25,518 bases of DNA from positions 1-25,518 of the forward strand of contig CAZDSE010000001.1 of NCBI GenBank assembly GCA_964507905.1. The letters are read 5' to 3'. This document shows, in pieces, positions 823 to 22,452 of the stretch. Numbering within the stretch: position 1 is the first letter of the stretch; each line of letters begins with the position of its first letter. This stretch comes from an uncultured bacterium (GTDB lineage Bacteria; Bdellovibrionota; JACOXK01; 2-02-FULL-40-11). Below the pieces are notes generated by a model. That model worked only from the letters and a program-made list of their open reading frames with translations, was not told the DNA's origin and made no database searches. A program made the position numbers and the translations under genes.

Positions 823-1374
823 CTATCCCTGCACCACCAAATTCACCAGTTTCCCAGGAACATATATTTCCTTTACCATTTTTTTCCCTTCCAAATATTT
901 CTGAACGTTGGGATGAGAGCATGCTTGTTTAATAATTTCATCTTTGGACAAGTCCTTGGGCACTTCTATATTGGCGCGCAGCTTCCCATTGACCTGAATC
1001 ACAATCGACATGACTTGAGACGCAAGCCACTTTGGATCGGCGATTGGCCATTTTTCTTTAAAAATACTATCTCTATGGCCTAATTCTAGCCACAGCTCTT
1101 CAGAAAAATGAGGAGCCAAAGGAGACAACAAAATTAAAAAATCTTCCAAAGTCTTTGAATCTATTTTTTTGTTCTGCAAAGCACTCACTTCATTCATAAA
1201 TTCCATAAACGCACTGACCACCACATTAAACTTAAATGCTTCCAAACGTTCGGTAACTTTTTGAATCAATTGATGATGAGCTCGCTCTACAAGAGGATCC
1301 GAAACAGAAGTCACATCTTTTGATTCCAACACCCAATTCCATGCCCGCCTTAAGAACTTATGAGCACCCTCCAT
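823..1374 (-). CDS. leuS: Leucyl-tRNA synthetase C-terminal part (anticodon-binding and C-terminal domains); homology in this frame starts at 1416 ([17 protein letters not shown]...)
   Basis: [51 protein letters not shown] and YVPGKLVNLVV are LeuRS C-terminal motifs. Out of frame with the N-terminal part. Confidence 0.9.
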   Translation of the reverse strand: MEGAHKFLRRAWNWVLESKDVTSVSDPLVERAHHQLIQKVTERLEAFKFNVVVSAFMEFMNEVSALQNKKIDSKTLEDFLILLSPLAPHFSEELWLELGHRDSIFKEKWPIADPKWLASQVMSIVIQVNGKLRANIEVPKDLSKDEIIKQACSHPNVQKYLEGKKMVKEIYVPGKLVNLVVQG

Positions 1375-3326
1375 CCCATTGTCATTCCACTCGGACTCCT
1401 GTTCCGGAGGACCAATAGCCTCACCGTGTCGGCTCCATATTGTTTTACCAAATCATCGGGATTCACCACGTTCAGCTTGGATTTGGACATTTTTTCAACT
1501 TTTCCCGTTTTTTCAGACTTTCGACATACCATCCCTTGATTAAATAATTTTAAAAAGGGTTCATCGAAATCAATCAGTTTTAAGTCATATAAAACTTTCG
1601 TAAAAAATCTTGAATATAATAAATGCAAAATGGCATGCTCAATCCCACCCACATACTGATCCACCGGCATCCAATGTTTGACGGATTTTGGATCAAATGG
1701 CCCTTGGGTAAATTTAGGAGATGGATACCGCAAGAAATACCAAGATGATCCGGCCCATTGCGGCATCGTATCGGTTTCCCGCCTGGCTTTTCCCTTACAT
1801 TGATAACACTGTGTATTCACCCAATCTGAAATCGTGGCCAGCGGTGACTCCCCGGTCCCTGAAGGTTCATAACTTTTTACATCTGGCAATAGGAGTGGCA
1901 AATCTTCTTCTCTCAGTGGCAATTCTCCACATTTTTCACAATAAATAATGGGGATGGGTTCCCCCCAATAGCGCTGCCTGGAAAACACCCAGTCGCGAAG
2001 TTTGAAATGGACAGACGATTTGGCCAAATTCCTTTTGGTCAAAAAGTCTGTCATTTTCTTTTTGGCTTCAGGAGATGGGAGACCATTAAACTCGCCAGAA
2101 TTTATCAACATTCCCTCTTCACAATACGCCTCCCCCACGGGTGACGCCGGGGGGAAGGTATTCCCCTTTTCGGAGCTCTGCGAGAAAAGGGGAAAACCCC
2201 CAGGCGGCAGGACCCGTGGGGTAGAGACTACAGATATAATGGGCAAGTTAAATTTTGTGGCAAACTTAAAATCCCTTTCATCATGCGCGGGCACACACAT
2301 GATGGCGCCGGTCCCATATTCCATGAGAACATAATCCGAAATCCACACTGGAATTTTAGCCTGATTGATGGGATTCACCGCAAAAATACCCAAATTAACC
2401 CCAGTCACTGGCAAATCATGGCTCAAACGTTCGGTTTCCTTTTCTTGAGAGGCTTGTTTGATATAACTTTCGACATCCTTTTTGCGATTTGGCTCACAAT
2501 ATTTCAACACCAGTGGATGCTCAGGAGACACCACCATAAATGTCGCACCAAACAGTGTGTCGGGACGTGTGGTAAAAACAGTAATGGGATGTTGGACCCC
2601 CTTTGAATCCAAAATATCAAAAATAATTTCGGCCCCTTCACTCCTACCAATCCAATTGGCCTGCATGAGTTTTACTTTTTCAGGCCAATCCACTAATTTC
2701 TCCAAATCCTTCAGCAGACGATCAGCATATTGAGTGATTTTCAGCATCCATTGATTTAAATTTCGTTTGTCGACTGGGGCATCACATCGTTCACATCGAC
2801 CTGCCACCACTTCTTCATTGGCCAACCCCGCTTTACAACTGGGGCACCAGTTGATGGGCATGAGTTTTCGATAGGCGAGTCCCTTTTTATAGAATTGAAG
2901 AAAAATCCATTGAGTCCAGTGATAAAAAGATGGGTCGGTTGTATTAATCTCTCGGTCCCAATCATACATGGCTCCTATTTCTGTGAGCTGTCGGCGAATA
3001 TTGGACACATTTTTTTCAGTATTTAACTTTGGATGATTTTTTTTCTTGATGGCATCATTCTCCGCCGGCAATCCAAACGCATCCCATCCCATGGGGTGCA
3101 TGACTTTAAACCCCCTTAACGTCTGATATCTGGACCACACGTCACTCAGCACATACCCTCTCCAGTGTCCAACATGGAGCCCCGAACCCGATGGATAGGG
3201 AAACATATCCAAACAATAGTATTTGGGACGAGGATCTTCATCCAAAGCCCGATGGAACCCCTTTTCTTCCCAATATTTTCTCCATTTGGGCTCCAGGTCT
3301 AAGAAATTATATGGACGATTTGACAT
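1350..3326 (-). CDS. leuS: Leucyl-tRNA synthetase N-terminal ~636 aa (frameshifted after GADTVRL; the last ~21 aa are out of frame)
   Basis: [14 protein letters not shown] (HIGH), [13 protein letters not shown]1 editing motifs [10 protein letters not shown] and [61 protein letters not shown]. Confidence 0.95.
2133..2221. repeat. 89-bp nested inverted repeat (palindromic element) lying in frame inside leuS
   Basis: CCCCACGGGT (2133-2142)/ACCCGTGGGG (2212-2221), 10/10. CGCCGGGGGG (2145-2154)/CCCCCAGGCG (2197-2206), 9/10. TTCCCCTTTTC (2161-2171)/GAAAAGGGGAA (2184-2194), 11/11. Much more GC-rich than its flanks. Confidence 0.85.
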
Positions 3327-5844: not shown

Positions 5845-6635
5845 TCAAGTCTCCTCTCATGATCGTCTAACCCCTTCATAAAATCTGAATTTAATACCTC
5901 TACCTGGGCAATGCTTTTAAATGCCTGAACATAAATGTCGCTCAATGGATTAGACTGAAACAACTTAATATATCCCATTTTCGTCATTTCCAAAAGCGCC
6001 AAAAATACAACCACCATTTCTTTTCGTTTGGCACCGCCGTCCTTCACGAAACCATCAAAAGGAATTAAATCGTTTAATTTTTCATTGAGTGTTGTGACAA
6101 TCTCCATAATCTTGTCATACACACTAAGCTCTTCTCCCTCAATCGTATGAATCACTTTTTTGGATTTTAAAATCACATCCTGGAATGCCACAGCCAGTTC
6201 ATAGACACCCACTTCAATCAAACTTTCTTTGGGATCAAAATCCCAAGTGAGATCTCTCGGTGGCAAGAAGACCCGAAACAAATCCTCATTTAAAAATGGC
6301 CTCTTTAATAAATCTTCAGCCGCATTTTTATATTGCTCGTACTCCATCAGACGACGAATAAGCTCTTCTCTGGGATCTGGGCCTTCTTCTTGCGACTCGT
6401 CTTCTGATTTCGGCAGCATCATTTTTGATTTGATGTAAATAAGAGTTGCCGCCATCACGATAAATTCAGACGCCAGTTCGACATCCAATGTTCTCATGCG
6501 ATTAATGACATCCAAATATTGATCTGTAATTTTAGAGATCTCTAATTTTTGGATATCAAACTCATTTTGACGAATCAAATGCAGCAATAAATCCAAAGGA
6601 CCTTCAAAATTTTCTAATTTCACTTGGACTGTCAT
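5841..6635 (-). CDS. scpA: Segregation and condensation protein ScpA (kleisin)
   Basis: FEGPLDLLLHLI, ASEFIVMAATLIYIKSKMMLP, DPREELIRRLMEY, VVFLALLEM. ATGA overlap with the trpS stop. Confidence 0.95.
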   Translation of the reverse strand: MTVQVKLENFEGPLDLLLHLIRQNEFDIQKLEISKITDQYLDVINRMRTLDVELASEFIVMAATLIYIKSKMMLPKSEDESQEEGPDPREELIRRLMEYEQYKNAAEDLLKRPFLNEDLFRVFLPPRDLTWDFDPKESLIEVGVYELAVAFQDVILKSKKVIHTIEGEELSVYDKIMEIVTTLNEKLNDLIPFDGFVKDGGAKRKEMVVVFLALLEMTKMGYIKLFQSNPLSDIYVQAFKSIAQVEVLNSDFMKGLDDHERRLE

Positions 6636-7615
6636 ATCTTCATCGCCCCTCGCACTTCTTCGATGGTCCTCTCTGCAATTTGTCTGGCTTTGTGCTCTCC
6701 ATCTTTCAAAATCTCTTCCACCTTTTTGGGCTGTGCCAAAAGTTTTTCTCTCTTTTCTAAAAAGATATCATGCCACGGCTGCAATGTCGTTAAAAGCATC
6801 TTTTTACAATCGATACATCCAATCTTGGCCGTCCTACACCCGGCTGCCGCTTCATCTTGCGTCGGTCCATCGGAATATGCCTTGTGGAGTTCAAACAGAG
6901 GACATTTGGCAGGATCTCCAGGATCTTGTCTTCGTTTACGCGCTGGGTCGGTTACAAACGTCAATATCTTTTGATTAAAATCTTTAGAATTATCAGATAA
7001 ATACACGCAATTATTATAGCTATTGCTCATCTTTCGTCCATCGGTACCTGGTACCTTTGGAGACAGACTCAGCTCTGCCTCGGGCTCTGGGAAAATGGGT
7101 GCAAACAAAAAATTAAATCGTCGGGTGATTTCCCGACCCAATTCCAAATGAGACACTTGATCTTCTCCCACCGGAACCAATTCCCCTTTATACATGAGTA
7201 TATCGGCTATCTGAAGTACGGGGTATCCCAGAAAACCAAAATTCGACGTGTCCTTATTCTTTATCTGTTCTATCTGCTCTTTATACGTCGGATTCCGCTC
7301 CAACCATCCCACCGGTGTAATCATGGACAAAAGTAAAAAAAGTTCCGCATGTTCTTTTACATGAGACTGAACAAACAAAGTCACTTTGTTTGGATCCAGT
7401 CCCAAGGCCAGCCAGTCCGTAACATTATCCAAATAGGTTTTTTGAATTAAATTCGAATCTTTAAAATCGGTGGTCAATGCATGCCAATCCGCCGCAAAGA
7501 AAAAACAATCGTATTTGTCTTGTAACGATATCCATGTTTTTAGAGCCCCCAAATAATGTCCCAAGTGCATGGGACCTGTCGAGCGCTTACCGCTCACCAA
7601 TCTTTTCTTTTTCAT
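6632..7615 (-). CDS. trpS: Tryptophanyl-tRNA synthetase
   Basis: GPMHLGHYLG (HIGH), FFFAADWHALT, LFVQSHVKEHAEL, GFLGYPVLQIADIL, VPVGEDQ..HLELGR; KMSKS variant KMSNS. Confidence 0.95.
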   Translation of the reverse strand: MKKKRLVSGKRSTGPMHLGHYLGALKTWISLQDKYDCFFFAADWHALTTDFKDSNLIQKTYLDNVTDWLALGLDPNKVTLFVQSHVKEHAELFLLLSMITPVGWLERNPTYKEQIEQIKNKDTSNFGFLGYPVLQIADILMYKGELVPVGEDQVSHLELGREITRRFNFLFAPIFPEPEAELSLSPKVPGTDGRKMSNSYNNCVYLSDNSKDFNQKILTFVTDPARKRRQDPGDPAKCPLFELHKAYSDGPTQDEAAAGCRTAKIGCIDCKKMLLTTLQPWHDIFLEKREKLLAQPKKVEEILKDGEHKARQIAERTIEEVRGAMKI

Positions 7616-7663
7616 ATGTCATCCCCGCGAAAGCTATGTCATCCCCTCGAAAGCGGGGATCTC
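7615..7663. repeat. REP-like palindromic element (GTCATCCCCGCGAAAGCGGGGATC type) with a 20-nt tandem duplication
   Basis: TATGTCATCCCCGCGAAAGC (7615-7634) then TATGTCATCCCCTCGAAAGC (7635-7654), 19/20 identical, followed by GGGGATCTC. It fills almost the whole S2P-trpS spacer and translates as the familiar VIPAKA repeat peptide. Confidence 0.8.
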
Positions 7664-7666
7664 TCC

Positions 7667-8332
7667 CTAAAATAAAAACAAATGCTCCAACCACCGTCCC
7701 ACCAAAAATACCGGCCACGCCACATAGCTTAAAACCCCGGTCATCATCAATGCCAAGAGCACAATCATTCCACTCATGGGATGAATCGATTCAAAAAAAC
7801 TTCGAATATTGTCTGGCAAAAATCGCCCAATAATTTTGGATCCATCCAGAGGAGCAATGGGAAGTAAGTTAAAGAAACATAACATTAAATTGAGCCGGAT
7901 GCCAATCACCGTCAAATCCTGAAACATTCGAATGGATTCCGGCATGAAAACCCCAGAACCAAAGCTGGTCACCATCCCAAATATAAAGGCAGATATAAAT
8001 GCCAAAATAAAATTAGACCCAGGACCTGCCAAAGCCACCCAAAACATATCTTCCACCCGCCGACGAAAATTCAAGGGATTGACCGGCACTGGCTTTGCCC
8101 ACGCAAACGGAATCCCGCCCCAAAACACATATAATAATGGAAGAACAACGGTCCCTATGGGATCCAAATGAGGAATGGGATTTAAGGTCAACCGGCCCAT
8201 GAGCTTCGCCGTCGAATCCCCCTTCCGATATGCCACCCACCCATGACAATATTCATGGATCGTGAGCGACAACACAAATATCGGAAAATACAATAGCAGC
8301 AAATGCACTTTGTCCATAGAGACAATGTACAA
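7667..8332 (-). CDS. Site-2 protease family (peptidase M50B) membrane metalloprotease
   Basis: HEYCHG (HExxH), GRLTLNPIPHLDPIGT, VALAGPGSN, FNLLPIAPLDGSKI (NxxPxxxLDG). The start is TTG 8332 or, more likely, ATG 8317. Confidence 0.92.
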   Translation of the reverse strand: MYIVSMDKVHLLLLYFPIFVLSLTIHEYCHGWVAYRKGDSTAKLMGRLTLNPIPHLDPIGTVVLPLLYVFWGGIPFAWAKPVPVNPLNFRRRVEDMFWVALAGPGSNFILAFISAFIFGMVTSFGSGVFMPESIRMFQDLTVIGIRLNLMLCFFNLLPIAPLDGSKIIGRFLPDNIRSFFESIHPMSGMIVLLALMMTGVLSYVAWPVFLVGRWLEHLFLF

Positions 8333-8363: not shown

Positions 8364-11300
8364 TTAATTGTGCCCTATCTCATAAATAGAGATAGTATAA
8401 AATGCTGAACTAAATGGATTTGTCATCGTAGTACACGAGTAACCGAATCCATTTCTATGAACAACTCCTATATATGATGCAGCAGGATTCGTTATGACTT
8501 TTTGAATGATGTTTGAAGTAGTGGTCAAATTTTGAGATAAACCATAATTTAATCGATTACAATCCCAATCGGCAAAGGCTTTGGCCATAGATTGATTAAA
8601 GGTCGGGAGACTGATCTGTACACTTTCTAAAAAATTCCATGACGGATCCAACAGAACCAATTTATCAACCGTCCCTGCATAGTTAAGCCTTGGGGCAAAT
8701 AAAATCCAATTATTTTGAAGAGGAGATATATTTTTTATATCAATAATATTTTCTGTGGAACTGACATAATTCGACAGTTTGGCTTTCAGATCTATTGGAG
8801 CTGAAAATACTTTTGAGTTGATATCAAAAGTGTACAGCTCGAAACTATTTTTAGATGCCACAAAATAAATCGTGTTATCGGTTGCCTTCAGAAGTCTCAT
8901 GTTTTCAAAATATTTATCTTGACCATATTCTTGATTGCTTAAAATCGCATTACTAAACGCCGTTGCACCATAAGTACTTCTCGAAGATTTTATAATTTGA
9001 TTACTGGCCGAAGCTCCATAGTCCTTAAACAAAAGCCATGAGAATAAAAAGTTGGATCCTTGGTTTACCACACCTAAAATAGAGGCATCGGTAACTGGCT
9101 CATAATTCACATCTACGCCAAGATCGGTGCTTAGAAAATCCTTAATCAGTCTTTTAGATTTTGTAGATTTGTTAATTTCCAAAAGACTTAGAGCTTTAAA
9201 ATTATCCCAAGCCCCCCCCTCACTTAGAAAAGCAATTTGTGTCAATGATGGGTCACTTGGAACATCAGAGACTACGATCTGAGGTCCGTAATAGTCCGTA
9301 CCCCCAGCCAACATATTTTCAGATGGAGAAGTCGAAAATGAAGCAATTTTTGAACAGCCATTGTTATATACATGAACCACTTGTGGTGGGAGTATGGCCT
9401 TCGTCGAACAGTTGGTATTATAGAAATCATCACAAATAATGGTTTCACTACCGGTAGCGTAATTAATATTTTTTTCGTATACATAAACATCCCCATTTTG
9501 TCCCAATGCAAATTTGGCTGCAAACGGCGCATAAAAAGGAAGATCTCGAGCCACAAACGCCCCTTTAAGATAAGGAAAATATGCATTCGCGGGGGCTTTT
9601 AGTTCATCGTAGGGAATATCGGTCACGCTACATTTATAAGCTGGGCAAAGTATTCCCGTGCATGTCTCAGAGGGGGCAGGAGGAGGTTCAGCAATAATGA
9701 GATCTGAAGACAAGGAGCTCGCCCCTTGTTCATACCCTGGATCTCCAGGATAGAGTAAAATATGCCCCATAATTTTAAATCCTGATTTGGGAACCGTGAT
9801 GGGACCTCCCAAATAAAATTGCGTATCTTTGAAATAGTATTCTGCCGTCGCTGGAGGAACCCATATCGAAGTAGAGGTCATAAAAGTACCAAGCAATGCG
9901 GCGGTAGCCGAGGGTTGTACACATTGATATCCTGTCGTTGATAATCCAGTTTTGGACGTCCCTGCTCCATAACCATAATCCGAAACTGAGTTGGTGTAGA
10001 AAAATGCGGGTCCTGTCATATTGAGTTCTGTTACGACAAACTTATCTAAAGGAAGCTTATAACTTACAGAATCGGAAGAAATATAGGGAGACGAACCAGA
10101 ATAAGCATTCATCACCGTCATCTTATTTCCCACAAAGTTGATCCCATCGCTATTATAGATATATTCATCTTTGGGCAATCCTTGATCTGTAAAAAGATTG
10201 AGAGAAAAAGCCTGATTGTTTTTTATCCCTTCCGTATTTTGATCGTTAAATGTAACTTGAGCTTGATTAATTGAAAAATTTAAATTTGGGAACATCCGAT
10301 AACTATACTGGACTTTTGTACAATTCCGATTCTGCAAGGAGACGTAGGAAAATATCCCAGTCACGGAAAATGGAATGAGCACATGGGAAACATTCACCGG
10401 CTTTTTAAAGGCCACTTGCCACCCTCCATTGGGAAAGATGGGGTTCGAGCTGGCTCTATTCATGTTAAAGTAATAGAGATCTCTTCCCACCCAATCATTG
10501 TATGGATAAGCCCCTGGAACCTGAAAAGATTGGATCACATCCGATGCAACGAGATCTTGAAGAGGTGAAAATCTGATGGCACCAATATTTGGTGCAAACC
10601 GATATTGCACTGTTTTAGATATGATCACACCATTATCACTTCTCAAGGCCTCAAGCTTAAAGTATTGAATTCTTTCAGTATCGCTTTTCCAATATCTCAG
10701 AAGTGAATCATACGTTCTGGCCGATGCATCCAGTTCAACCGGCTGAGACATCCCCAACAAGGTTGAAAAATCGGCCTTTTCAGACAGAGAAACTCTAAAC
10801 TTTGAAATCACACGATCCGAACTGCCCCGAAATGCATCCAAGACTTTCCATGAAAAACCAGATTGAGTATCAACAGAAGCACCGGGTTTAAAGCTGACCA
10901 AAGATTGATCTTGCCTTGGAGAAGTAATTTCAAACACATCGCATTCATCTTTGATTCCATCACCGTCGGAGTCTTGGCCGTTGTCATTGTATTGGCAAGA
11001 ATCACACGCATTTCCATAGCCATCGGAGTCTGAATCCGCTTGATCGCGGTTAGAGATAGAGGAACAATTATCAACAGTCCCTGTCACGTTAGAACAGGTC
11101 ATTAGACTACCATCACACCCATCTTGATCTGGGTCATTGGCCAAAGACTTTTTGGTAATGGGATCTATATCACAGACATTGTCAATTCGATCGACGTCAG
11201 TATCATTCCCAGAGTTGACTTGATTATGGCAGCTATCGCAATTTGCAAAACCCACCCCCGGTAGTCCATCCATGGCTTCTCCGGCAATGACTTTCCAATC

Positions 11301-14300
11301 GGTGGAAGCGGTAGAAGGTTCTATTCTTGCAGGTCTACATTCATGTAATGGATCTGTGGCATTGGCGAGAGGCCAATAGTCGACGAGATTATCTCCATCA
11401 GAATCATAGGCGGCTATCCCAGATTCACATGCATCTCCACCTCTGGCATCACCGTCTGAGTTTTTCTGATCATGATTTGCGATATTGGGACAGTTATCGA
11501 CTTGAGAAGCCCCGGTCTGAGGATTCTTACATGTTTGAAGTGTGGCATCACATCCATCTTGATCTAGATCATTGGGATAGGGATCGCATTTGGAATCAAT
11601 CCCATCTTTGTCCCCTTCCGTAAATGAATTTTGTTCATTATTTTTCCCCACACAACTGTCACATCGAACCGGTTGCCCATTCACCGTAACATCTGCTCCT
11701 TGAGTAATGGCTCCTGTGTCAAGATTGGTTTGGGCTCTTTGGCAGGCATTTAGAGGTTTATTTTCTTGTACCCCTTGTCTTCTTCTTTTCGCCCAATCGA
11801 GCCAGGTACTTTGTACCCCTTTATGATATTCGGGTTGTAAGTCTTGATCCGTATCTAGGGGATATGGATCACAGACATCTCCAACGCCATCCCCATCAGA
11901 ATCCATTTGATCAAAGTTTTTATCAAATGTCGTATTACTACAGTTATCACAAAACACACTCCCAGTACTGCAATCAGGGATTCCATCATTATCCAAATCT
12001 CTGGACGTATCCACAATTTGATTTAGCTCTGAAATATAATAGTAATCGCAGTTATTTCTAATCCCATCTAAATCGGCATCTAAAGAAGTATTCCCGATTT
12101 CTGATCCTGTTAATGTGCAAAAATTTCCTTCGCATGCATCTCCACAATTGTGGATATCTTTAGACCCACCAGACACTTCTACTTTACAAGAGTTATTGGA
12201 ATCCAGTTGATCTGAGTTTAAAGCACTGGCGCAGTTATCACAGCTATCTCCCACGCCATCTCCATCGCTATCTGATTGCGAGTAATTATAAAGTTGATTT
12301 TGAGTTAAAGATGGATATTTTTTGGGACTGCAGTTATCACACACATCATAGATGCTATCCAGGTCTAAATCATCCAAGCTTCCCGGCTGGTTTGGCCCAT
12401 TGTATACATTCCGACATGACGGAGATTCTTGACTATCTGCGATCCCGTCACTGTCTTGATCAGCGAATACAACATAGCTAACTATAGACTCCCCACTTTG
12501 ATTGCCCACACTGTCTCTGGCAGAGGCTCTCACAATCACACTTTTTGTATAACTGAGATTTACCGTAGGCCCTTGAACGGTTTGAGAAGTAATGAGTCCA
12601 CTGTTTGAGGCATCTTTGACTTCATAGAAAATCGTCGTTCCTGATTTATTTTCTGTTGAAAGCGTTATGGCAATACTATTTGAATAATTGGTATTAGATT
12701 GCCCAGGGGTAATGGTCATTGAGGGTGCTTGATTATCGATGGTATATTTAAATCCACTTGAAAGTGCTTCATTAGTTGCCTGATCCACACAAAGCGCATA
12801 CAGTATAAATTCCTGGTTTCTTGGAATTTTATTCTTATCACTATCGGATAATAATTTTGGGTAAATATATTGAGATGTGGCTGTGGGAACTTGATTCACC
12901 CCCCAATAAATACTGGCTTTTAAATTCTCTACCCCTGAGTCTGTACATTTAATCCCAAAATAACTAAAAAAGTTACTTTCATTATATGCAGTTTGGGAAG
13001 AAGGACTCATCTGGGGCTCTGAGGCTACTTTCTTAAACTCGATACTATTATTTAATTTTGCTCCTGCATTTTGTGCCAAATCTATTGCAAATGCTCGAAT
13101 AGTTGCTGTATCTGAAAGGGGTACTTCCGCATACCCCCCCGTGGCTCGAATTGTCTTTCCAGTGGCATCATTGGGATCGGGTTCTACGGGAGTGCCACTT
13201 CCATAAGTAATCGTATAATAAATAGTAGCAGTCGTATCTCTGACCGTGCTGTCTATAGACTTTTTGGCTTCTATTATAAATTTCTTACCAATATCTTTTA
13301 TCCCATACAGTCCTCCTATTGGATTCCCTTGTGGACTAAAGTTAACGACTGGCAGAGTTTTATCCAACTCATATTCTCTTTTTACTGGGGTTTGTGTTAT
13401 ATTTCCACTCACATCTTCCCCAATGACTTTTATAATCGTTACCCCTTCATCAGAAATCGTATCGATCACTTTGGGAAGCGCTGAAACTGTGACATCCATT
13501 TTATTGGTGTAGCTGGCTTTAGTAACAGTACAATCCGTGCCATTTAACACCCTGCACCAATACACAGTTTTAATATCACTATCCGCATTGTCCAATACAA
13601 CGGATATGGCTTTATTGGTTAATCGGGTTATTGGACTAATCGATAATACTGGAGCCATGCTATCTATGGCATAAGAAACCTCTTGGGTCTGACTTTGATT
13701 CCCCACACTGTCTTTTGCACTGGCTCTTACTATAATAGACTTTGTATAACTTCGACTCACTGTAGGCCCTTGGACCGTTCCACTTTCAAGTACACTGATT
13801 TGGTTTATGGCATCCAATATAGAATATGTAATTGTGGTCCCTGTTTTATTTTCTGTTGAAATGGTAAAATCCACTTTATTCGCATATGGAATCGAAGACT
13901 GACCTGGGCTTATTGTAACGGAAGGTGCCAATGTATCTATTGTATATTTATATCCAGCTGCAGATGTTCTACTTTCATTATTGGCCTCATCCACACACAG
14001 CGCATGAATCGTAAATTCAGCGTTTCTGGGGATTTTGTCCTTATCGCTATTCGATAAAACTTTAGAATATAAAAATTTTAAATCCTTTGTGGGAACTTCA
14101 TTAATCCCCCAATACAGTGTGGCTTTTAAATTCTCTGCCCCTGAGTCTATGCACTTAATCCCAAATAAATTAAAAAAGTTACTCTCCGCATATATATCCG
14201 GCGAAGGACCCACTTGTACCTGGGAAGCATCTTTTTTAAACTCTATCCGATTGCTAGAAGCCTCTCCTGCGTTTTGTGCCAAATCTTTTGCAAATGCTCG

Positions 14301-16490
14301 AATGGTGGCTGTATCTGAAAGAAATTCTTCCTTATACCCATTGGTTGCTGTCTTTGTCACTCCCGTATGATCATCCGGATTGGGTTCTACTGGAACATTA
14401 CTCCCATACGTAATCGTGTAATAAATCGTAGACCCACTATCTCTCTTATTATTATCTTTGGGATTAATCGCTTCTATACTTACTTTTTTGGGAATGTCTA
14501 AACTTCCATACGGCCCACCTCCCAATGGATTATATTTAATCACAGACTTGGTTGTATCTAGCTCATACTCCTTCTTATTGGGTTGAGACAAATTCAAATC
14601 ACTGTCTTCTGCAATGAGCTTTATAATGGTTATTCCCTCATTAGAAATCGTATCGATCACTTTGGGAAGCTCGGCCTTGGTGACATCCATCTTTGAAGTG
14701 TAAGTGGTTTTACTAACCGTGCAATCAGGCGCATTTAATGCCTTACACCAATAAATTGTTTTGATATCACTGTGTGTAGAATCTACTTTTACAGATATGG
14801 CTAAATTATGGAGCCTTTCATCCGGCATAATCGTTAACTCCGGAGCAATGCTATCTATCGTATAGGTACTTTCCAAAAGAGGCGTAGACATATTCCCCGC
14901 TCTATCTTTCACAAATGCTTTAATCACATTTTGTCCCTGGGTTGTAAGCCTTGGAAGCGTAAATGAATATGGTAAATCAAATACATCCGCTCTATTTGTA
15001 TTTTGATCACTGTCTAAAGGCGCCAATTTGTTATTGGTCCAATACATGATGCCGGCTTCCGATGACTGAAGCTTTGCCACCACATCCGCTGTATATCTTC
15101 CTTGAATTGGGGTTATTGAAAGTGTTGGAATTTCTTTGTCCAATACAAACCGAAATGGACCTTCTTTTGAAAAATTATTAAGCGCATTATACGCACTAAA
15201 TCGCAACGTAAATACTTTGGCCTGCCCCACATTTACCTTATACGGATCTTGGCTCCCCACCCTTATCCCTGTAGATGCATCAAATTTTAAAGACGTCTTA
15301 TCTGCATCCTCTGCCACTTCCCCTTCTTTTAAACTGTAATATATCTCATCTGAGCTATTGGCCGTTAAAAGCATTATCTTAAAATCTTCATTATAATAAC
15401 TTCGGTCAGATAACGCCGTAGCCGCCACTCGATCCACTTCAATCTTTAGCCCTGTCGGTGCTTGCGTATCCACCTTATAGCTCGCATTAAATATCCCACT
15501 CGTATTCCCATAACTGTCCCTTGCCCTCGCCTTTATCACTGTCCAGTCATTTATCTTTTGTATCGTTATTTTTCCCCCATGCATCACATGCATACTCCGC
15601 ATCTCACCAGCCACGATGGGATCACTCCCATCCTCTGTATAAAAAATCTCATCCGTCGCATCCTTCGCAAATAACGTAACATCAAATGTAGCTCCTCGAA
15701 TGGTGTCCGCCACAGGAGAAAAACTCACCCCGGGCGCATCCTTATCAATCGTTATTATTAATCCTATCTCCTCACTCTTCTTATCCACTCGGTCCATGGC
15801 TATGGCTTTCACCACATAGGTCTTTTCTTCCCCGGGATTGGCTGTTAAATTTAATTTCTTGGATGAAGACATGTCCCATACCAAATTCGAATCTATGGCA
15901 GCTATTGAAGAGACCATCGAATATTGTACTTTTTTAATATCCGTAGAACCATCTGCCAAAATCTCTACCCCTATATCCTTTGTGTATATAATCCCACGAT
16001 CCGTCACCTGATCCGCTCTCACTGGAGTTATATTGACCAAACTATCCATTAATCCAATGTCTGATGTCAAAAACCTAATCTTTGGATCATCCACATCGAT
16101 CTCATAATGAAGAGTCTTAACTTCTGTCTTTTGAAGCCCAAATACAGAAAAAAACGCCACATCTGTTGTCTCTATTATTGGTATCGCACTCTGTGGCACA
16201 TACTCAAAACTACTCTCCTCTTGTGGCACTATCCCATCCAACGCATAATATATCTTTGCCCCCACCCTCGATGCTTCCAAAAATACATCTATCGGCACCC
16301 CATATAACCCCTCAGGTTTACTTGCCCAGCTCGTTAGCTTGTCCTCCACCGCAGCCTTCCCAGCTCCTTGTTCCAACTTCCCTGGCCCCTCCCCGGTAGG
16401 TGAACACGACATAAAAGCCCATGACCCAAAAAAAAGAAAAAAACATAATATTGTCTTTTTTGAAATTAGTTTTAAAGAATTATATATCAT
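8364..16490 (-). CDS. Giant (2708 aa) predicted lipoprotein adhesin-like protein: Ig/CHB_HEX_C-like repeats, thrombospondin type-3 repeats and a C-terminal binding region
   Basis: Signal MIYNSLKLISKKTILCFFLFFGSWAFMS-C29. Repeated IYY..DG..P / ID..AP / A.D..GN Ig-like units. Many DxDxDGxxDxCDNC motifs. C-terminal Fn3-like, discoidin-like (GGWQVAFKKPVNVSHVLI) and propeller-like segments; these domain names are by-eye calls. Confidence 0.8.
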   Translation of the reverse strand: MIYNSLKLISKKTILCFFLFFGSWAFMSCSPTGEGPGKLEQGAGKAAVEDKLTSWASKPEGLYGVPIDVFLEASRVGAKIYYALDGIVPQEESSFEYVPQSAIPIIETTDVAFFSVFGLQKTEVKTLHYEIDVDDPKIRFLTSDIGLMDSLVNITPVRADQVTDRGIIYTKDIGVEILADGSTDIKKVQYSMVSSIAAIDSNLVWDMSSSKKLNLTANPGEEKTYVVKAIAMDRVDKKSEEIGLIITIDKDAPGVSFSPVADTIRGATFDVTLFAKDATDEIFYTEDGSDPIVAGEMRSMHVMHGGKITIQKINDWTVIKARARDSYGNTSGIFNASYKVDTQAPTGLKIEVDRVAATALSDRSYYNEDFKIMLLTANSSDEIYYSLKEGEVAEDADKTSLKFDASTGIRVGSQDPYKVNVGQAKVFTLRFSAYNALNNFSKEGPFRFVLDKEIPTLSITPIQGRYTADVVAKLQSSEAGIMYWTNNKLAPLDSDQNTNRADVFDLPYSFTLPRLTTQGQNVIKAFVKDRAGNMSTPLLESTYTIDSIAPELTIMPDERLHNLAISVKVDSTHSDIKTIYWCKALNAPDCTVSKTTYTSKMDVTKAELPKVIDTISNEGITIIKLIAEDSDLNLSQPNKKEYELDTTKSVIKYNPLGGGPYGSLDIPKKVSIEAINPKDNNKRDSGSTIYYTITYGSNVPVEPNPDDHTGVTKTATNGYKEEFLSDTATIRAFAKDLAQNAGEASSNRIEFKKDASQVQVGPSPDIYAESNFFNLFGIKCIDSGAENLKATLYWGINEVPTKDLKFLYSKVLSNSDKDKIPRNAEFTIHALCVDEANNESRTSAAGYKYTIDTLAPSVTISPGQSSIPYANKVDFTISTENKTGTTITYSILDAINQISVLESGTVQGPTVSRSYTKSIIVRASAKDSVGNQSQTQEVSYAIDSMAPVLSISPITRLTNKAISVVLDNADSDIKTVYWCRVLNGTDCTVTKASYTNKMDVTVSALPKVIDTISDEGVTIIKVIGEDVSGNITQTPVKREYELDKTLPVVNFSPQGNPIGGLYGIKDIGKKFIIEAKKSIDSTVRDTTATIYYTITYGSGTPVEPDPNDATGKTIRATGGYAEVPLSDTATIRAFAIDLAQNAGAKLNNSIEFKKVASEPQMSPSSQTAYNESNFFSYFGIKCTDSGVENLKASIYWGVNQVPTATSQYIYPKLLSDSDKNKIPRNQEFILYALCVDQATNEALSSGFKYTIDNQAPSMTITPGQSNTNYSNSIAITLSTENKSGTTIFYEVKDASNSGLITSQTVQGPTVNLSYTKSVIVRASARDSVGNQSGESIVSYVVFADQDSDGIADSQESPSCRNVYNGPNQPGSLDDLDLDSIYDVCDNCSPKKYPSLTQNQLYNYSQSDSDGDGVGDSCDNCASALNSDQLDSNNSCKVEVSGGSKDIHNCGDACEGNFCTLTGSEIGNTSLDADLDGIRNNCDYYYISELNQIVDTSRDLDNDGIPDCSTGSVFCDNCSNTTFDKNFDQMDSDGDGVGDVCDPYPLDTDQDLQPEYHKGVQSTWLDWAKRRRQGVQENKPLNACQRAQTNLDTGAITQGADVTVNGQPVRCDSCVGKNNEQNSFTEGDKDGIDSKCDPYPNDLDQDGCDATLQTCKNPQTGASQVDNCPNIANHDQKNSDGDARGGDACESGIAAYDSDGDNLVDYWPLANATDPLHECRPARIEPSTASTDWKVIAGEAMDGLPGVGFANCDSCHNQVNSGNDTDVDRIDNVCDIDPITKKSLANDPDQDGCDGSLMTCSNVTGTVDNCSSISNRDQADSDSDGYGNACDSCQYNDNGQDSDGDGIKDECDVFEITSPRQDQSLVSFKPGASVDTQSGFSWKVLDAFRGSSDRVISKFRVSLSEKADFSTLLGMSQPVELDASARTYDSLLRYWKSDTERIQYFKLEALRSDNGVIISKTVQYRFAPNIGAIRFSPLQDLVASDVIQSFQVPGAYPYNDWVGRDLYYFNMNRASSNPIFPNGGWQVAFKKPVNVSHVLIPFSVTGIFSYVSLQNRNCTKVQYSYRMFPNLNFSINQAQVTFNDQNTEGIKNNQAFSLNLFTDQGLPKDEYIYNSDGINFVGNKMTVMNAYSGSSPYISSDSVSYKLPLDKFVVTELNMTGPAFFYTNSVSDYGYGAGTSKTGLSTTGYQCVQPSATAALLGTFMTSTSIWVPPATAEYYFKDTQFYLGGPITVPKSGFKIMGHILLYPGDPGYEQGASSLSSDLIIAEPPPAPSETCTGILCPAYKCSVTDIPYDELKAPANAYFPYLKGAFVARDLPFYAPFAAKFALGQNGDVYVYEKNINYATGSETIICDDFYNTNCSTKAILPPQVVHVYNNGCSKIASFSTSPSENMLAGGTDYYGPQIVVSDVPSDPSLTQIAFLSEGGAWDNFKALSLLEINKSTKSKRLIKDFLSTDLGVDVNYEPVTDASILGVVNQGSNFLFSWLLFKDYGASASNQIIKSSRSTYGATAFSNAILSNQEYGQDKYFENMRLLKATDNTIYFVASKNSFELYTFDINSKVFSAPIDLKAKLSNYVSSTENIIDIKNISPLQNNWILFAPRLNYAGTVDKLVLLDPSWNFLESVQISLPTFNQSMAKAFADWDCNRLNYGLSQNLTTTSNIIQKVITNPAASYIGVVHRNGFGYSCTTMTNPFSSAFYTISIYEIGHN
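10938..12461 (-). repeat. Thrombospondin type-3 (Ca2+-binding) repeat region, ~508 aa
   Basis: DSDGDGVGDSCDNC, DSDGDGVGDVCDP, DADLDGIRNNCD, DLDNDGIPDC, DSDSDGYGNACDSC, DSDGDGIKDECD and others. Confidence 0.85.
12474..14865 (-). repeat. Tandem duplication of a ~397-399-aa (about four-domain) module within the giant gene
   Basis: Copy 1 TIDSIAP...VSYAID (~13671-14865); copy 2 AIDSMAP...VSYVVF (~12474-13670); period 1191-1197 nt. Shared exact DNA includes GAAATCGTATCGATCACTTTGGGAAGC. Confidence 0.9.
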
Positions 16491-16644: not shown

Positions 16645-19600
16645 CTATAACTCCGTAGGTTCGTTGCAGATAAAATAATGATAATATTTGTCATAGTCGG
16701 AAGAGACATCTCTTAGGACAGGCCCAATAATCTTTTCTTTGGGCAGGACATTCCTCCGATGGACCATGATAAAATGCTGTCCTAGATTTGCGACATAGAT
16801 GTGATTCCCATAGGCTCCTACAATTCCCGATCCAAATGAACCTGCGCTTGCCACATTGTAATAAAAAAGATCATTGGTGATGGGAGTCGATTTCCCGGGT
16901 GGAAGCGATGTAAAAAAGTGCTTAAAGAGCCACTCATTGTAGCGAATACTCGCCTGAAATCCAAGAGGTGGAAGCTGGACTGAAGCATCTCTAAATTCAC
17001 AATTTTTGAGTCGATCCCCTTCCCTTTGATATACAATCGAAGGCAATGAACCGTGCCCAATGACGAGTTCGCCTCTCTTAAACGCACCAAAATCGAGTCC
17101 CCGGGTAAAGCTGGTCGCACTGCTGTCGCCCATCCATTCGGTATAGCCAGAGAATTGACTATCTGGAGATCGTGTCAGATCTATGCTTGAAAGAACGACG
17201 AACGTATTTGCATCAAACGCCCGCACACTGGCCCTAGAATGGTAACTCGATCCATCCCATACAGTCACAAAGAGAATCCCATCATCCGTTGCTTCAATAT
17301 TCCCAATTCCTTTAACCAATCTTGGAGCTACGCTTTTTAATGGGATTTCCGCTAAAATATTTCCATTATGATCATAAACATCTATTTTCCCAGCGGTTAC
17401 ATAATGATCAGAATTCATCACCGCATTCACCACATAAATTTTATCTTTAAAAACGGCCAATGACCTCGGCTCATACCCAATCGGAATGACTTTGGGATCA
17501 GCGGAGAGATTGTTCATATTAAAAATCTGTAAGCGTTTATTTTTGGTATCGGATACCCACAAATCCGTATGATCACCCTCTTCAACAAATACCGTGTCTA
17601 TTGGCTCATTAAATTCACCCATATTGGCACCCAATACATTCTTATTCACATTAGACGGATCTATTTTACCAAGCACATATTTGGGCATACAAAAACAGAC
17701 TTCGTTATTGGGCACTGCATAAACGCTGCTACTCCCACCCGGTATGATGCCTCCATAAAATGTCTGATAAACTGGCTGATTGGATTTTTCCAAACATTCT
17801 TTTTTATCAAAAATTTGAATCCGATGATTGTAGCGATCAGCAACACCAATATATTTAGAATTGATACTGATTTTTCCGGCTTCCCCTGCTCCCGGAATAG
17901 ACGCTTGGTTATTCGTAATGGCCCATGATTTCGGAATGGATGCTTGGCTCGCACCTCCCGAGACCAAAGAAAACTTCTGGGGTTCCCAGTACACTTCAAA
18001 ATTAGGCCGCATTTGAGGGCTCAGTCTAAAAAATCCTTTCCGACTCAAAACTTCATTATAATAGCTGTCTTCTGTTTCTCCATATTGCTTGGGATGATAA
18101 CACCCAATAAATCCGCTAAAAAAAGTCGGAGCCGGATCGCCCCAAGCCTTTCCACTGCTCACGGTAAACTCTGCATTGGCTTTGGCTTGGGCCCCACTTA
18201 TATCTGTAACCACGAGTTCTACTTTATAAATTCCTGCGACATTGGGGACATAGGTCACTTGATTGCCAGTGGATTGTAACGATTGTTTGACGCCACCGGG
18301 TAATTCAATGGACCACGTAGAGGTCACCGCATCCCCATCGGGATCCAATATAGTGCCTTTCATTTTCACTTCGCCCAATGTTTCTATTTCACCCAGCGGA
18401 TCTAAAACAATCGCCGCTGTTGGAGGTCTCGATTGAATTCTAAAGTTTTGAGATTTGGTTTCGGTGGCTTCTCCATCGCTAACCGCCACAGATACTGCAA
18501 ATGATCCGTAATCTGAACCCGTCATTTTTGAATTGAGGGCCTCACTATTTTCAAGAGTCGCTCCACCACTGACCATCCAACTAAAGGTCAGCTGATCATT
18601 ATCAATATTTTGAACAGGGATCCCCAATGTATATGATGCTCCTTTTAAGAGTCTCGCCAACCCTTCGATGATATCCACTTTGGGATCAAAAGAAATCTCT
18701 CCCAGCTTGGGCGCTGCATTCACAACCGTAAAGCTCGACAACTGAGATACCTCCAAGCCTTGTTCGTCTTTTACGATGAGTGTAAACGGAATGGGACCTT
18801 TTTGTTGAGGTGTAAAAGTCACTGATTTTCCCTTCAGTGATTCGTTCAGCACACTTAATTTCCATTCAATAGTTAGCTTATCCACTGTGCTTTCAAGATC
18901 TTGAACATCTGCGGTTAATGTTGCAAGCTGTCCTTTATATATGGCGTCCGGTTGGGCCAGAATGCCTGTAATTTTTGGGGCATGATTTTCCACGCGAAAG
19001 GATTGAACGACAGACTGAGTTTGTCCCCCTTGAGGATCTTTGACAATCAATCTCAATTCATGATCTCCAAAGTCCGATATGATAAAGATGACATTTTCAG
19101 ATAAATTTTTTGTTTTTAATTCAATGACTCCATTGGGTTTGATCAATTGCCATTCGCAGGTCAATGCATCTAAATCCAAATCTGATGCAATGCATTGCGC
19201 GTCGATCGGTTTATTAAAAATAATGGGTTCGGTGAGAAGTTTAATCTGGGCATTCGCAGGATCTCTGTTTTGCGTCGCAAATTTTGTTTCAGTCGATGCA
19301 CTATCCATTGAATCTGTCACCTTGAGCTTAATGACGTATTCACCATACGATGGAGGCATAAAAATAGGCTCAGCGACTTTTAATGTCTCAAGCCGCAAAG
19401 TCCCCTTCCACACCTCCCATGCATATTGGAGTGTATCTGAGTCTGGATCCAATGCATCAGATGACAAACTCACTTGTTGGCCCACCATATACGGAGATGT
19501 TTTGGCATAAATTTGAGTTAACGTGACCGACTTATTCAGAGTCGTAAAAGATGCTATTCGTTCAGATTTCGCCCCTTGGGCATCGGTTAAAATGAGTTTA

Positions 19601-22452
19601 ACATCATATTTTCCTTTGGAAGAAATTTCAAATCGGGGACTTTCCATTATTTTTTGATCCGTTTTTAAAATTTCTGCACCCAAGCTGTCTTTGACACTCC
19701 ACGCATAGACGAGAGAGTCTTTTTCCAAATCATCTACTTGGGCACTTAAAGTTAAAAAGTCATTTAAGTAAATCGCTGTCGGATCCATTTTAATTCCCGT
19801 AATCACCGGAGCGGCATTATCAACCATGATGGACTTTGACTGACCAACGGTATCAAATGAATCGGTCACCTTGAGCTCAATATGATAAGATTTTCGTTCT
19901 GGAATCTCAAACTCTCCCATTTTTCCGCTCAAAGATTTAATCACTTGATCTTGATCATCCAATAAGTTCCATTCATATGAAATGAGTGCCACTTGACGAA
20001 TATCCGGATCTGAAGCGGTTGCACTCAGAGTCACTTTCCCGCCTTGATTCACATGCAAAGGAGTTACACTCATCGACTCAATGACTGGTTTTCGATTGAG
20101 AACATCTATTGAAATGATGTCTGGCGCACTGTCGCTCTCTCCATCATTCACCACCAATGACACATTATAATGACCGGGTTCTATGGCTTTAAAGATGGGA
20201 CTGGATGATGTCGAATCTGCTCTAGAGAGAGAGGCTTTGTCAGAATCCACTTTCCACATAAATTTACTGATGCCACTATCACTCCTGGCTTGAGCGGCAA
20301 TGACCACTCCTTCATCAATAAATGCGGCCGATTTTGCCGATGTCAAAGAGGTTATTTCAGGTGGACGATTATCGACAGCAATGGACGCATGCGATGGATC
20401 GCTTTTGGATACTCCATCTGAAACAATGAGCTCCACATTGTATGTCCCCTTATGGGTGGGCAAAAAACTTAACTGTGATTTTATTTCGTCAACACCCAGC
20501 GCCACTGATGATCCCGAGGGTTGATTGATGAGCTGCCACTTATATGTCAGCCGCCCTTGGTCCTCAGTATCCGTATCATAACTCTTCGTTCCATCTAATT
20601 TAACAAGCTCTCGACCCACCATAGTGGTTGGCGATGCACTTGCAACGGCCACAGGTTTTTCATTCGCCACATGAACTTCTCTGTGATCCTCTGAAAATCC
20701 AAAACCATCGGTCACGCTCAAAATAATGTCATAGGTTCCGGATTGAACCACCTCAAAAGAGTTTTCAATACCTTGTAATTCTATTAAATCTCCACCAGGC
20801 TTTTTAATTTTCCACGAGGTCGACAACTGATCTCCATCTGGATCATCTTCGGTCAAACTTTGAAGACGAATTTTAGAAAAAATATGAGCCTCTTCGGGTG
20901 TGACTGAGGCAATGGCTTTGGGAGGCCTATTTTCTAAGTAAAGTGTCACGGGTTCACTTCGAACAATGGTATCTCCATCGGACACCGTCAGACGAACCTC
21001 ATATGAAGATTTTTTTGAAAAGGAGATATCCATTTCGACGCCAGATTTTGACGACACCATACTCCCATCTTCCTTATCCCGGATTTCCCATTGATGGGTG
21101 AGTGGATCTCCATCCAAATCAGCTCCCCCATGGCTAAACAAATGAAAAACTTCTCCAACTGATCCTTTGAGGGGAACAGCCAGAATGATGGCCCGCGGGG
21201 ATTGGTTTATAATTCTGATACTATCTTCTTTTGTTGTTTTTCCGCCCAATCCATCTGAAACTTCTAATTTAATTTTTTGGGTTTTCTTGGTTGCCACCGT
21301 GTAGCTAGATTCTTTGCCTTCTAGCGTTTTTTCGCCATCATTGATGACCCATTTGACGTTAAACTCATCCCCATCCGGATCTGTACTTCCTCTGGCATCC
21401 AGATGAATTATTCGACCCACTGTGGCTTCTTTGACATCCATCTTAAGATCCGCCACTGGATTTCGATTGATCACGGTTAGTTTTAAAATGCTGGATGCAA
21501 CCACCGCTGTGCCATCGGTGACTGCTGCTTGGATTTCATATTTTCCCCGTTTGGTGGCTTTAAAATGTTGCTTTTCTCCCGAGAGATCTAAAGCAAACTC
21601 CTTTAAATCATCTATCCCTTTAATTTTCCACGTGGTGCTCAATATATCCCCATCGAGATCAAAGGGCTGCGAGAGACTGAAATCGACGGTATCATCTAAG
21701 GTTGCGGAGAACCGATTCATAATCGCTTTAAATGTCGGAGCTGAATTGATAATCTCAATTTCTTTTTCGACAATATCGGATTGCGATTCACCGTCTGACA
21801 CCAAAAGCTGAATTTTATATTCCCCTTTTTTGTCGGCTTTAAAGGAAGTCTGAGCGACTGATGTGCTCGCCAGTTCAGTTTTGGATCCATCGGGTCTTTG
21901 TAAATTCCAAGAAAAATATAACCTGTCTTGATCTGGATCAGAACTTTTGGAGCCGTCTATTTGAAAAACAGACCCGACAATTGGAGTTTGAATTTTGGAA
22001 ATTTCCATCATTGCTATGGGGACTCTATTTTTGACTCGAATGGTAATGGGAATAGGCTTTGATGTATGTTTTCCTGCTTTTGCTACGAGCCACGCCACAT
22101 AGGTTCCCTTTTTATCTGGAACAAATACGGGATTTGCAAACTTCGCATCATTTAAAATACTGCCGGATTCTTCCGGTGCAATGAGTCTCCATTCGTACGT
22201 AATATTTTTTTGAGGAAGTTTCCCTGCGTAAATTTGGACCGAATCTCCTGGCTTAACTTCTTCGCTGTTTTCCACATAAGGAGAAACATTGTCCAAAACG
22301 GATGGGCCAATTTCTTCTTCGGCTGTTTTTGTTTGAGGAGCCTCAGATGAACTCGTGCCCTTGTCTTTTCCGCATCCTTGCCAGGTAATTGCAAAAAATA
22401 CAACAATAAGAACGAGATTAAATTTCATCCACAAACGTTCCACTGATTTCAA
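16645..22452 (-). CDS. Large (1935 aa) predicted lipoprotein with 15 tandem PKD-like Ig domains and a C-terminal NHL-like beta-propeller region
   Basis: Signal MKFNLVLIVVFFAITWQG-C (likely ATG start at 22428). Repeats follow N-x-x-P-x-A...DPDGD.L.Y.W...G.Y.V.L.V.DG (~18151-22306). Head has GVADRYNHRIQIF, WVSDTKNKRLQIF and YVANLGQHFIMV. Confidence 0.85.
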   Translation of the reverse strand: MKSVERLWMKFNLVLIVVFFAITWQGCGKDKGTSSSEAPQTKTAEEEIGPSVLDNVSPYVENSEEVKPGDSVQIYAGKLPQKNITYEWRLIAPEESGSILNDAKFANPVFVPDKKGTYVAWLVAKAGKHTSKPIPITIRVKNRVPIAMMEISKIQTPIVGSVFQIDGSKSSDPDQDRLYFSWNLQRPDGSKTELASTSVAQTSFKADKKGEYKIQLLVSDGESQSDIVEKEIEIINSAPTFKAIMNRFSATLDDTVDFSLSQPFDLDGDILSTTWKIKGIDDLKEFALDLSGEKQHFKATKRGKYEIQAAVTDGTAVVASSILKLTVINRNPVADLKMDVKEATVGRIIHLDARGSTDPDGDEFNVKWVINDGEKTLEGKESSYTVATKKTQKIKLEVSDGLGGKTTKEDSIRIINQSPRAIILAVPLKGSVGEVFHLFSHGGADLDGDPLTHQWEIRDKEDGSMVSSKSGVEMDISFSKKSSYEVRLTVSDGDTIVRSEPVTLYLENRPPKAIASVTPEEAHIFSKIRLQSLTEDDPDGDQLSTSWKIKKPGGDLIELQGIENSFEVVQSGTYDIILSVTDGFGFSEDHREVHVANEKPVAVASASPTTMVGRELVKLDGTKSYDTDTEDQGRLTYKWQLINQPSGSSVALGVDEIKSQLSFLPTHKGTYNVELIVSDGVSKSDPSHASIAVDNRPPEITSLTSAKSAAFIDEGVVIAAQARSDSGISKFMWKVDSDKASLSRADSTSSSPIFKAIEPGHYNVSLVVNDGESDSAPDIISIDVLNRKPVIESMSVTPLHVNQGGKVTLSATASDPDIRQVALISYEWNLLDDQDQVIKSLSGKMGEFEIPERKSYHIELKVTDSFDTVGQSKSIMVDNAAPVITGIKMDPTAIYLNDFLTLSAQVDDLEKDSLVYAWSVKDSLGAEILKTDQKIMESPRFEISSKGKYDVKLILTDAQGAKSERIASFTTLNKSVTLTQIYAKTSPYMVGQQVSLSSDALDPDSDTLQYAWEVWKGTLRLETLKVAEPIFMPPSYGEYVIKLKVTDSMDSASTETKFATQNRDPANAQIKLLTEPIIFNKPIDAQCIASDLDLDALTCEWQLIKPNGVIELKTKNLSENVIFIISDFGDHELRLIVKDPQGGQTQSVVQSFRVENHAPKITGILAQPDAIYKGQLATLTADVQDLESTVDKLTIEWKLSVLNESLKGKSVTFTPQQKGPIPFTLIVKDEQGLEVSQLSSFTVVNAAPKLGEISFDPKVDIIEGLARLLKGASYTLGIPVQNIDNDQLTFSWMVSGGATLENSEALNSKMTGSDYGSFAVSVAVSDGEATETKSQNFRIQSRPPTAAIVLDPLGEIETLGEVKMKGTILDPDGDAVTSTWSIELPGGVKQSLQSTGNQVTYVPNVAGIYKVELVVTDISGAQAKANAEFTVSSGKAWGDPAPTFFSGFIGCYHPKQYGETEDSYYNEVLSRKGFFRLSPQMRPNFEVYWEPQKFSLVSGGASQASIPKSWAITNNQASIPGAGEAGKISINSKYIGVADRYNHRIQIFDKKECLEKSNQPVYQTFYGGIIPGGSSSVYAVPNNEVCFCMPKYVLGKIDPSNVNKNVLGANMGEFNEPIDTVFVEEGDHTDLWVSDTKNKRLQIFNMNNLSADPKVIPIGYEPRSLAVFKDKIYVVNAVMNSDHYVTAGKIDVYDHNGNILAEIPLKSVAPRLVKGIGNIEATDDGILFVTVWDGSSYHSRASVRAFDANTFVVLSSIDLTRSPDSQFSGYTEWMGDSSATSFTRGLDFGAFKRGELVIGHGSLPSIVYQREGDRLKNCEFRDASVQLPPLGFQASIRYNEWLFKHFFTSLPPGKSTPITNDLFYYNVASAGSFGSGIVGAYGNHIYVANLGQHFIMVHRRNVLPKEKIIGPVLRDVSSDYDKYYHYFICNEPTEL

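Follow-up and report, generated by a model that had tools for sequence, protein, structure and literature searches.

A GC-rich palindrome in the LeuRS reading frame of an uncultivated bacterium, with features of an inserted palindromic repeat

Palindromic elements within genes

That palindromic elements can insert in frame into unrelated housekeeping genes has been established since the palindromic elements of Rickettsia (RPEs) were described (Ogata et al. 2000, 2002; reviewed in PMC10969869). Bacterial MITEs found within genes include ERIC, BOX, QMITE1, and the MITEs of Anabaena (PMC10969869). REPINs are inverted doublets of REP units that form a hairpin, and REPs are mobilized by RAYT transposases (PMC3116915). 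Here we describe an 89-nucleotide (nt) imperfect palindrome that lies inside the reading frame of leuS, the gene encoding LeuRS, on the 25.5-kb stretch of DNA analyzed in this study (the window), and we consider how this 89-mer compares with each of these systems.

Like the RPEs, the 89-mer is hairpin-forming DNA that lies in frame in a conserved housekeeping gene, where it adds a peptide at a position compatible with the fold, and like them it has no obvious terminal repeats, target duplications, or transposase. RPEs, however, are about 100 to 150 bp long, are present in tens to hundreds of copies per genome, encode a conserved peptide, and are found in Rickettsia, whereas this element has 89 bp, is much GC-richer than its host, is known from one copy, and lies in an uncultivated clade outside Rickettsia. 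The nearest LeuRS sequences are from MAGs labeled Deltaproteobacteria, the nearest with a name being that of "Deltaproteobacteria bacterium GWA2_38_16." With REPINs the 89-mer shares an inverted-doublet architecture, in which two inverted GC-rich units with imperfect palindromic cores flank a short spacer and fold, as single-stranded DNA or RNA, into one hairpin of ~70 to 110 nt. It differs from REPINs in its single known copy, in the lack of a RAYT gene in the window, and in its location, which is inside the leuS frame rather than extragenic. Intragenic MITEs are likewise small, non-autonomous, and hairpin forming, and in-frame fusions with host reading frames are possible for them. MITEs have terminal inverted repeats that match a parent IS and, usually, target-site duplications; the 10-bp outer stem of the 89-mer could serve as terminal repeats, but neither a duplication nor a parent IS was found. 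GC-rich hairpin inserts in the coding sequences of an AT-richer genome are also known from yeast mitochondria, as GC clusters and "byp" elements, and the 89-mer resembles them in being a GC-rich hairpin insert inside a coding sequence. Theirs is a different genetic system, and "byp" elements are skipped by the ribosome, whereas the 89-mer is in frame and requires no bypass. The 89-mer is RPE-like in its working and REPIN-like in its architecture, and both in-frame palindromic insertions and intragenic MITEs are phenomena already known.

The leuS hairpin and its translated loop

The leuS gene lies on the minus strand and is read in two frames, a first one of 658 amino acids (aa) at window positions 1350 to 3326, which holds the HIGH motif, the CP1 editing domain, KMSKS, and the insert, and a second one of 183 aa at positions 823 to 1374, which holds the anticodon-binding and C-terminal part. 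The 658-aa open reading frame (ORF) is a LeuRS, with Thermus thermophilus LeuRS as its best PDB match (E = 9e-208), and Pfam recognizes in it the class I synthetase core and the LeuRS editing domain PF13603 (residues 224 to 429).

A preliminary description of this DNA had reported a nested GC-rich hairpin at positions 2133 to 2221, and sequence, stem pairing, and composition all confirm it. The hairpin is carried by the minus strand within LeuRS residues ~368 to 398; its sequence on the plus strand is CCCCACGGGTGACGCCGGGGGGAAGGTATTCCCCTTTTCGGAGCTCTGCGAGAAAAGGGGAAAACCCCCAGGCGGCAGGACCCGTGGGG. In the outer stem, CCCCACGGGT (2133 to 2142) pairs with ACCCGTGGGG (2212 to 2221) at 10 of 10 positions, followed by a bulged middle stem in which GCCG and GGGGG face CCCCC(A)GGCGGC. 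The inner stem of 15 nt, 93% complementary with an 11/11 core, joins GGTATTCCCCTTTTC (2157 to 2171) to GAAAAGGGGAAAACC (2184 to 2198) and encloses an apical loop of 12 nt (2172 to 2183; GGAGCTCTGCGA on the plus strand). The 89-mer can also be read as two arms. The left arm (39 nt; 2133 to 2171, plus strand) has a palindromic core of its own (GGGGAA-GGTA-TTCCCC, GGGGAAGGTATTCCCC), and the right arm (38 nt; 2184 to 2221, minus strand) is an inverted copy of the left with the core GGGG-AAAA-CCCC (GGGGAAAACCCC). The left arm and the reverse complement of the right arm align end to end with one 1-nt gap and several substitutions.

Folding of the leuS mRNA strand over positions 2120 to 2235 gave −61.7 kcal/mol (z = −5.17), compared with −41.9 ± 3.8 kcal/mol for shuffled controls, none of which (0/200) was as stable, bearing out the strong stem-loop expected from the earlier reading. 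At its maximal extent the helix predicted by RNA folding spans about 2126 to 2228 on the minus strand, with 4 to 5 additional bp beyond the 89-mer that overlap the host codons V-S and E-A. Folded as single-stranded DNA, the hairpin had a z score of −5.5. It was the extreme of a sliding 100-nt scan of the whole 25.5 kb (−58.2 kcal/mol; GC-corrected z = −6.4), whereas the best value beyond the leuS stretch at about 1951 to 2260 was only −34.9 kcal/mol. At 67% GC, the 89-mer lies well above the remainder of leuS (43%) and the window as a whole (41%).

A second leuS hairpin lies ~80 nt downstream of the insert in the mRNA (minus strand; window positions 2003 to 2058), with an outer stem formed by ATGACAGAC…GTCTGTCCAT and an inner stem formed by TTTGACCAAA/TTTGGCCAAA; it is weakly significant (z = −2.2; 6/200 shuffles equally stable). 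Rfam returned no match to the 89-mer at gathering score, and the top matches at the E-value threshold were unrelated miRNA models, scoring 15 to 21 bits against cutoffs of 84 to 100. We rejected identities as a known RNA family, a tRNA-like structure, or an intron remnant. An intrinsic terminator was also rejected, since no U-tract follows the full stem and only an internal 5-bp subhairpin fits the terminator pattern. A very stable helix of ~35 bp within a coding region, with a weaker hairpin ~80 nt farther along the mRNA, might nonetheless suggest a functional element, either an mRNA structure that tunes leuS (as a ribosome pause, an RNase III site, or a determinant of stability) or a new interaction surface on the editing domain. 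We give this explanation very little chance, the least of those considered here, given that the hairpin is conserved in no relative, has no Rfam match above noise, is not terminator-like, and encodes a low-complexity peptide with predicted disorder. Any regulatory role of the leuS mRNA hairpin is purely conjectural.

The hairpin begins with the second position of a Thr codon and runs through the third position of a Gly codon. Translated on the minus strand, a detail to be added to the preliminary description, the insert yields ~30 Pro/Gly/Ser-rich residues of low complexity between PIISVV-S and EAYCEEG, with no stop codon. The in-frame peptide that had been placed between NLPIISVV and EAYCEEG was therefore correct, as was its assignment to the CP1 editing domain, its residues lying inside PF13603 (224 to 429). 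Only a short variable loop had been expected at this site, and the homologs agree: the span from PAHD to LRDW is 101 aa here, the longest among the best 120 LeuRS sequences, and has its canonical 84 aa in 91 of these 120. The insert is absent from all 119 other best LeuRS homologs (119/119), and in the nearest orthologs (P0002, P0003, and P0005; 76 to 77% identity), 2 to 12 residues stand in place of the 31. These alignments support a lineage-specific in-frame insertion. In an AlphaFold2 model of LeuRS built on 50 homologs, residues 371 to 396 have pLDDT values below 50 and no secondary structure, while the flanking blocks reach 86 to 96; the model thus predicts that the insert is a disordered loop on the editing domain, in line with the disordered surface loop foreseen from sequence. 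The hairpin makes up 89 of the 93 nt of this loop. Since the loop is almost all hairpin, a plain insertion would also require that the ancestral loop was lost or had been very short, like that of P0005.

Farther along leuS, ~700 nt downstream of the hairpin, comparison with the ortholog alignment places a deletion of ~13 nt, whose junction (AGGCT followed by ATTGGT) lies at positions 1411 to 1421 on the minus strand. It shifts the frame, splits leuS into the 658- and 183-aa ORFs, and costs four residues, the "FELF" of the conserved motif RL[FY]ELF[IV]GPPE, two of which are nearly invariant. The rest of the first leuS frame retains all residues that are invariant across the 50 sequences of alignment A2, which suggests that the deletion is recent, belongs to a minority allele, or is an assembly error. 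The split leuS could be genuine, as a defective or divided gene, or could stem from a minority allele or a mistake in assembly.

One explanation of the hairpin follows the same line: it might, like the 13-nt deletion, lie outside the functional leuS of the organism, as an assembly or amplification artifact or as part of a defective minority allele. The gene is essential and normally single copy, yet it is frameshifted here with conserved residues lost, on a metagenome-type contig that no independent assembly supports, neither its LeuRS nor its agmatinase being listed in the public assembly index. We nevertheless consider this explanation highly improbable. The insert is exactly in frame, is free of stops, and sits in the one loop whose length varies among relatives. 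Fold-back artifacts consist of perfect inverted adjacent sequence, whereas the 89-mer is imperfect and unrelated to its flanks. The conserved residues kept elsewhere in the first frame also speak against it. Given the frameshifting deletion, we can only infer that a working enzyme tolerates the hairpin.

Searches for copies and hairpin repeats in related genomes

The preliminary description had proposed that the 89-mer belongs to a mobile palindromic repeat family with many further copies. A profile of the two arms recovered both arms themselves (E = 3.6e-9 and 5.8e-6). Beyond the arms it found no copy: the best E value was 19 for the rest of the 25.5-kb window and 11 for the 88 kb searched from seven related genomes. 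Among JGI metagenomes, an arm-consensus pattern with 25 specified bases had 0 matches, and a pattern with 19 specified bases had only 21 single-arm chance matches, none of which extended; these lay on contigs of 50 to 75% GC, 20 of the 21 at ≥58%. In viral contigs, one pattern gave 0 matches and the other a single unrelated GC-rich direct repeat (L146), and blastn searches of plasmids and phages found no match to the 89-mer. A full HMMER search with its six-frame translation against 1.84 billion protein representatives returned none at E <= 0.001. When genome contigs were scanned with a generic terminator-like pattern of the inner stem (TCCCCTTTTC…GAAAAGGGGA), none of the matches listed extended beyond 15 nt. 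Word-index protein searches, run with the six-frame concatenate and with the 60-aa in-frame segment, were empty but carry no weight, since they also missed the window's own LeuRS, although local phmmer scores that protein at E = 2.6e-8.

The local copy density is thus <=1 per 25 kb, far under RPE or REP densities. The flanks of the element, GTCTCTA on one side and GAGGCGT on the other, contain no target-site duplication, and the window contains no gene for a transposase, a RAYT, a Y1 transposase, an HUH or GIY-YIG nuclease, or another nuclease. Of the proposal made from the sequence, the in-frame insertion and the analogy with RPEs hold and fit this clade, but no second copy was found. The many copies that it predicted did not appear in the window, in the 88 kb from relatives, or in the public collections scanned; the suggested check for a target duplication found flanks without one; and no RAYT/TnpA(REP), HUH, or GIY-YIG gene accompanies the element in the 25.5-kb window. 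Mobility of the 89-mer is unproven.

The relatives carry palindromes of their own in the same loop. Units of the form GTCATCC(Y)…GAAGGATC lie in frame at the CP1 loop of P0003, P0007, P0008, P0009, and P0010, and in P0008 and P0009 the GTCATCC…GGATC repeat is also present in frame at a second leuS site. Full units number 8 in about 114 kb of clade DNA, compared with 0.06 expected from shuffles; 7 of these are in frame in leuS, and 1 is intergenic in the window (7618 to 7668). The window locus as a whole occupies positions 7616 to 7668 on the plus strand, where a truncated 5′ half-unit and a full unit (GTCATCCCCGCGAAAGC and GTCATCCCCTCGAAAGCGGGGATCTC) sit between trpS (6632 to 7615, minus strand) and the M50 peptidase gene (7667 to 8332, minus strand). 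Judged by these counts, GTCATCC…GGATC is demonstrably a real multicopy repeat family. The copy in the CP1 loop probably dates back to an ancestor of much of the clade and not to repeated insertion. One to three tandem 5′ half-units of 15 to 24 nt precede the repeat at L001 1180 to 1265, L003 3040 to 3150, and L005 5915 to 5975, a pattern that suggests either slippage or an element that repeatedly inserted itself into its own 5′ end. Host codons for Val-Ile (GTCATC/GTCATT) look like the beginning of this repeat. A literature search with the sequence string of the repeat found only unrelated primer matches, and we know of no published name for it.

Like the 89-mer, the GTCATCC…GGATC repeat is GC rich, forms hairpins, and is found in frame within the CP1 loop of LeuRS, in its case in relatives; unlike the 89-mer, it has a unit of about 25 to 37 nt and a different sequence and is demonstrably multicopy. 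Because the 89-mer has no detectable similarity to the loop DNA of relatives, it did not evolve from that DNA. Derivation of the 89-mer from the relatives' loop repeats, or from the L149 hairpin described below, was rejected for lack of a significant alignment.

Further long hairpins of 100 to 165 nt, most of them GC rich and all different in sequence, are present in the contigs of relatives, and the 89-mer has no significant alignment to any of these. They include a hairpin of 165 nt with terminal repeats of roughly 30 bp (L005, 4627 to 4790), one of 125 nt (L005, 15574 to 15700), and a REPIN-like inverted doublet of GTCATYCTGAG units (L003, 12735 to 12835; 42% GC over 12700 to 12870). The long MITE-like hairpins among these have perfect terminal inverted repeats of 30 to 33 bp; their sites are upstream of leuS and where RNase HII adjoins UPF0102, and at the latter site the UPF0102 ORF is called about 40 aa longer than those of relatives. 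On L149, the contig of the closest relative (P0005), a 115-nt hairpin with 65% GC (1455 to 1570) overlaps the 3′ end of mutS and is fused in frame to MutS, giving it a new tail, VGGWGGARRGAHLDEASGVPRGDG, that ends at a stop codon. The lineage is rich in hairpin repeats able to end up inside genes, and these in-gene repeats raise the prior probability that the 89-mer is one of them.

The clade can also be read in the opposite direction. The 89-mer may be a solitary palindrome of local, non-mobile origin, which arose when template switching or hairpin-primed repair made an inverted copy of a short GC-rich insertion in the loop. The lack of another copy in the metagenome, protein, and relatives' searches would then be expected, as would the lack of a target duplication at the insert and of a transposase in the window; the arm substitutions and the one-base gap fit an old local duplication, and the CP1 loop is known to be prone to indels across this clade, where relatives show tandem expansions of half-units. 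We find this origin unlikely, however, since a GC content 24 points above that of leuS suggests sequence of a foreign or repeat type, neither arm is similar to the flanks or to the loop DNA of orthologs, and the clade demonstrably has hairpin repeat families, inverted doublets included.

Proposed origin and window context

Our preference, held with modest confidence, is that the 89-mer is a tolerated insertion of a palindromic repeat similar to REPINs, MITEs, or RPEs. It is the strongest hairpin in the window, is far richer in GC than its gene (67% versus 43%), and is absent from homologs, and its inverted arms with internal palindromes have a REPIN-like layout. The same loop in relatives holds units of a proven repeat, and long hairpins recur in the relatives' contigs. 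In-frame palindromic insertions are established elsewhere, and the loop formed by the insert is predicted to be disordered. The case is weakened by the lack of a second copy in any of the collections searched, of a target duplication, and of a recognizable parent element or transposase in the window. Under this proposal, a palindromic repeat that resembles REPINs, MITEs, or RPEs and is not autonomous would have placed a copy in leuS, landing in, or replacing, a permissive hypervariable loop at the C-terminal edge of the CP1 editing domain. With the frame kept and no stop codon introduced, the ribosome would read through the element as ~30 Pro/Gly/Ser-rich residues, and the translated insert would be a disordered loop at a distance from both the catalytic and the editing pocket. 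The element would then persist because the loop tolerates it and not through any function. We infer all three of these parts, namely the origin from a repeat element, the tolerance in a working enzyme, and the lack of function.

A broader version is more tentative, and we would not yet count on it: the 89-mer may be the first known member of an undescribed family of GC-rich hairpin repeats in an uncultivated groundwater-type clade, a family that, along with the GTCATCC repeat and the relatives' other long hairpins, repeatedly colonizes coding sequences. The colonized sites would then comprise two in leuS, an essential gene, and one at the end of mutS, and elements would have landed in the LeuRS CP1 loop recurrently, a "coding palindrome" phenomenon like that of Rickettsia but outside the Rickettsiales. 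If the 89-mer is repeated, selfish DNA inside protein-coding genes extends beyond Rickettsia, where it is best documented, to a distant uncultivated lineage and to a GC-rich type of element, and the LeuRS loop that borders the editing domain is a naturally permissive insertion site. Such a loop, if truly permissive, would be of use in engineering and would help to explain the origin of new surface loops. A solitary 89-mer would be a curiosity confined to one hypervariable loop. Both outcomes leave the core of the enzyme unaffected and imply no new mechanism.

Other genes in the window encode PvlArgDC, agmatinase, GcvH, ScpB, ScpA, TrpRS, an M50 peptidase, and a DUF6036 nucleotidyltransferase. 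At positions 22 to 797 on the plus strand, an 81-aa ORF without a family match overlaps the start of the DUF6036 nucleotidyltransferase ORF, and these two ORFs stand where relatives have succinate dehydrogenase genes after leuS; they may be an inserted toxin-antitoxin-like pair. The window also encodes very large predicted surface proteins on the minus strand: one of 2,708 aa (8364 to 16490) has an internal duplication of about 1.2 kb (12495 to 14864), one of 1,935 aa (16645 to 22452) has PKD and Big_9 repeats, and one of 690 aa (22458 to 24530) has a proline-rich 18-nt tandem repeat at 23533 to 23715.
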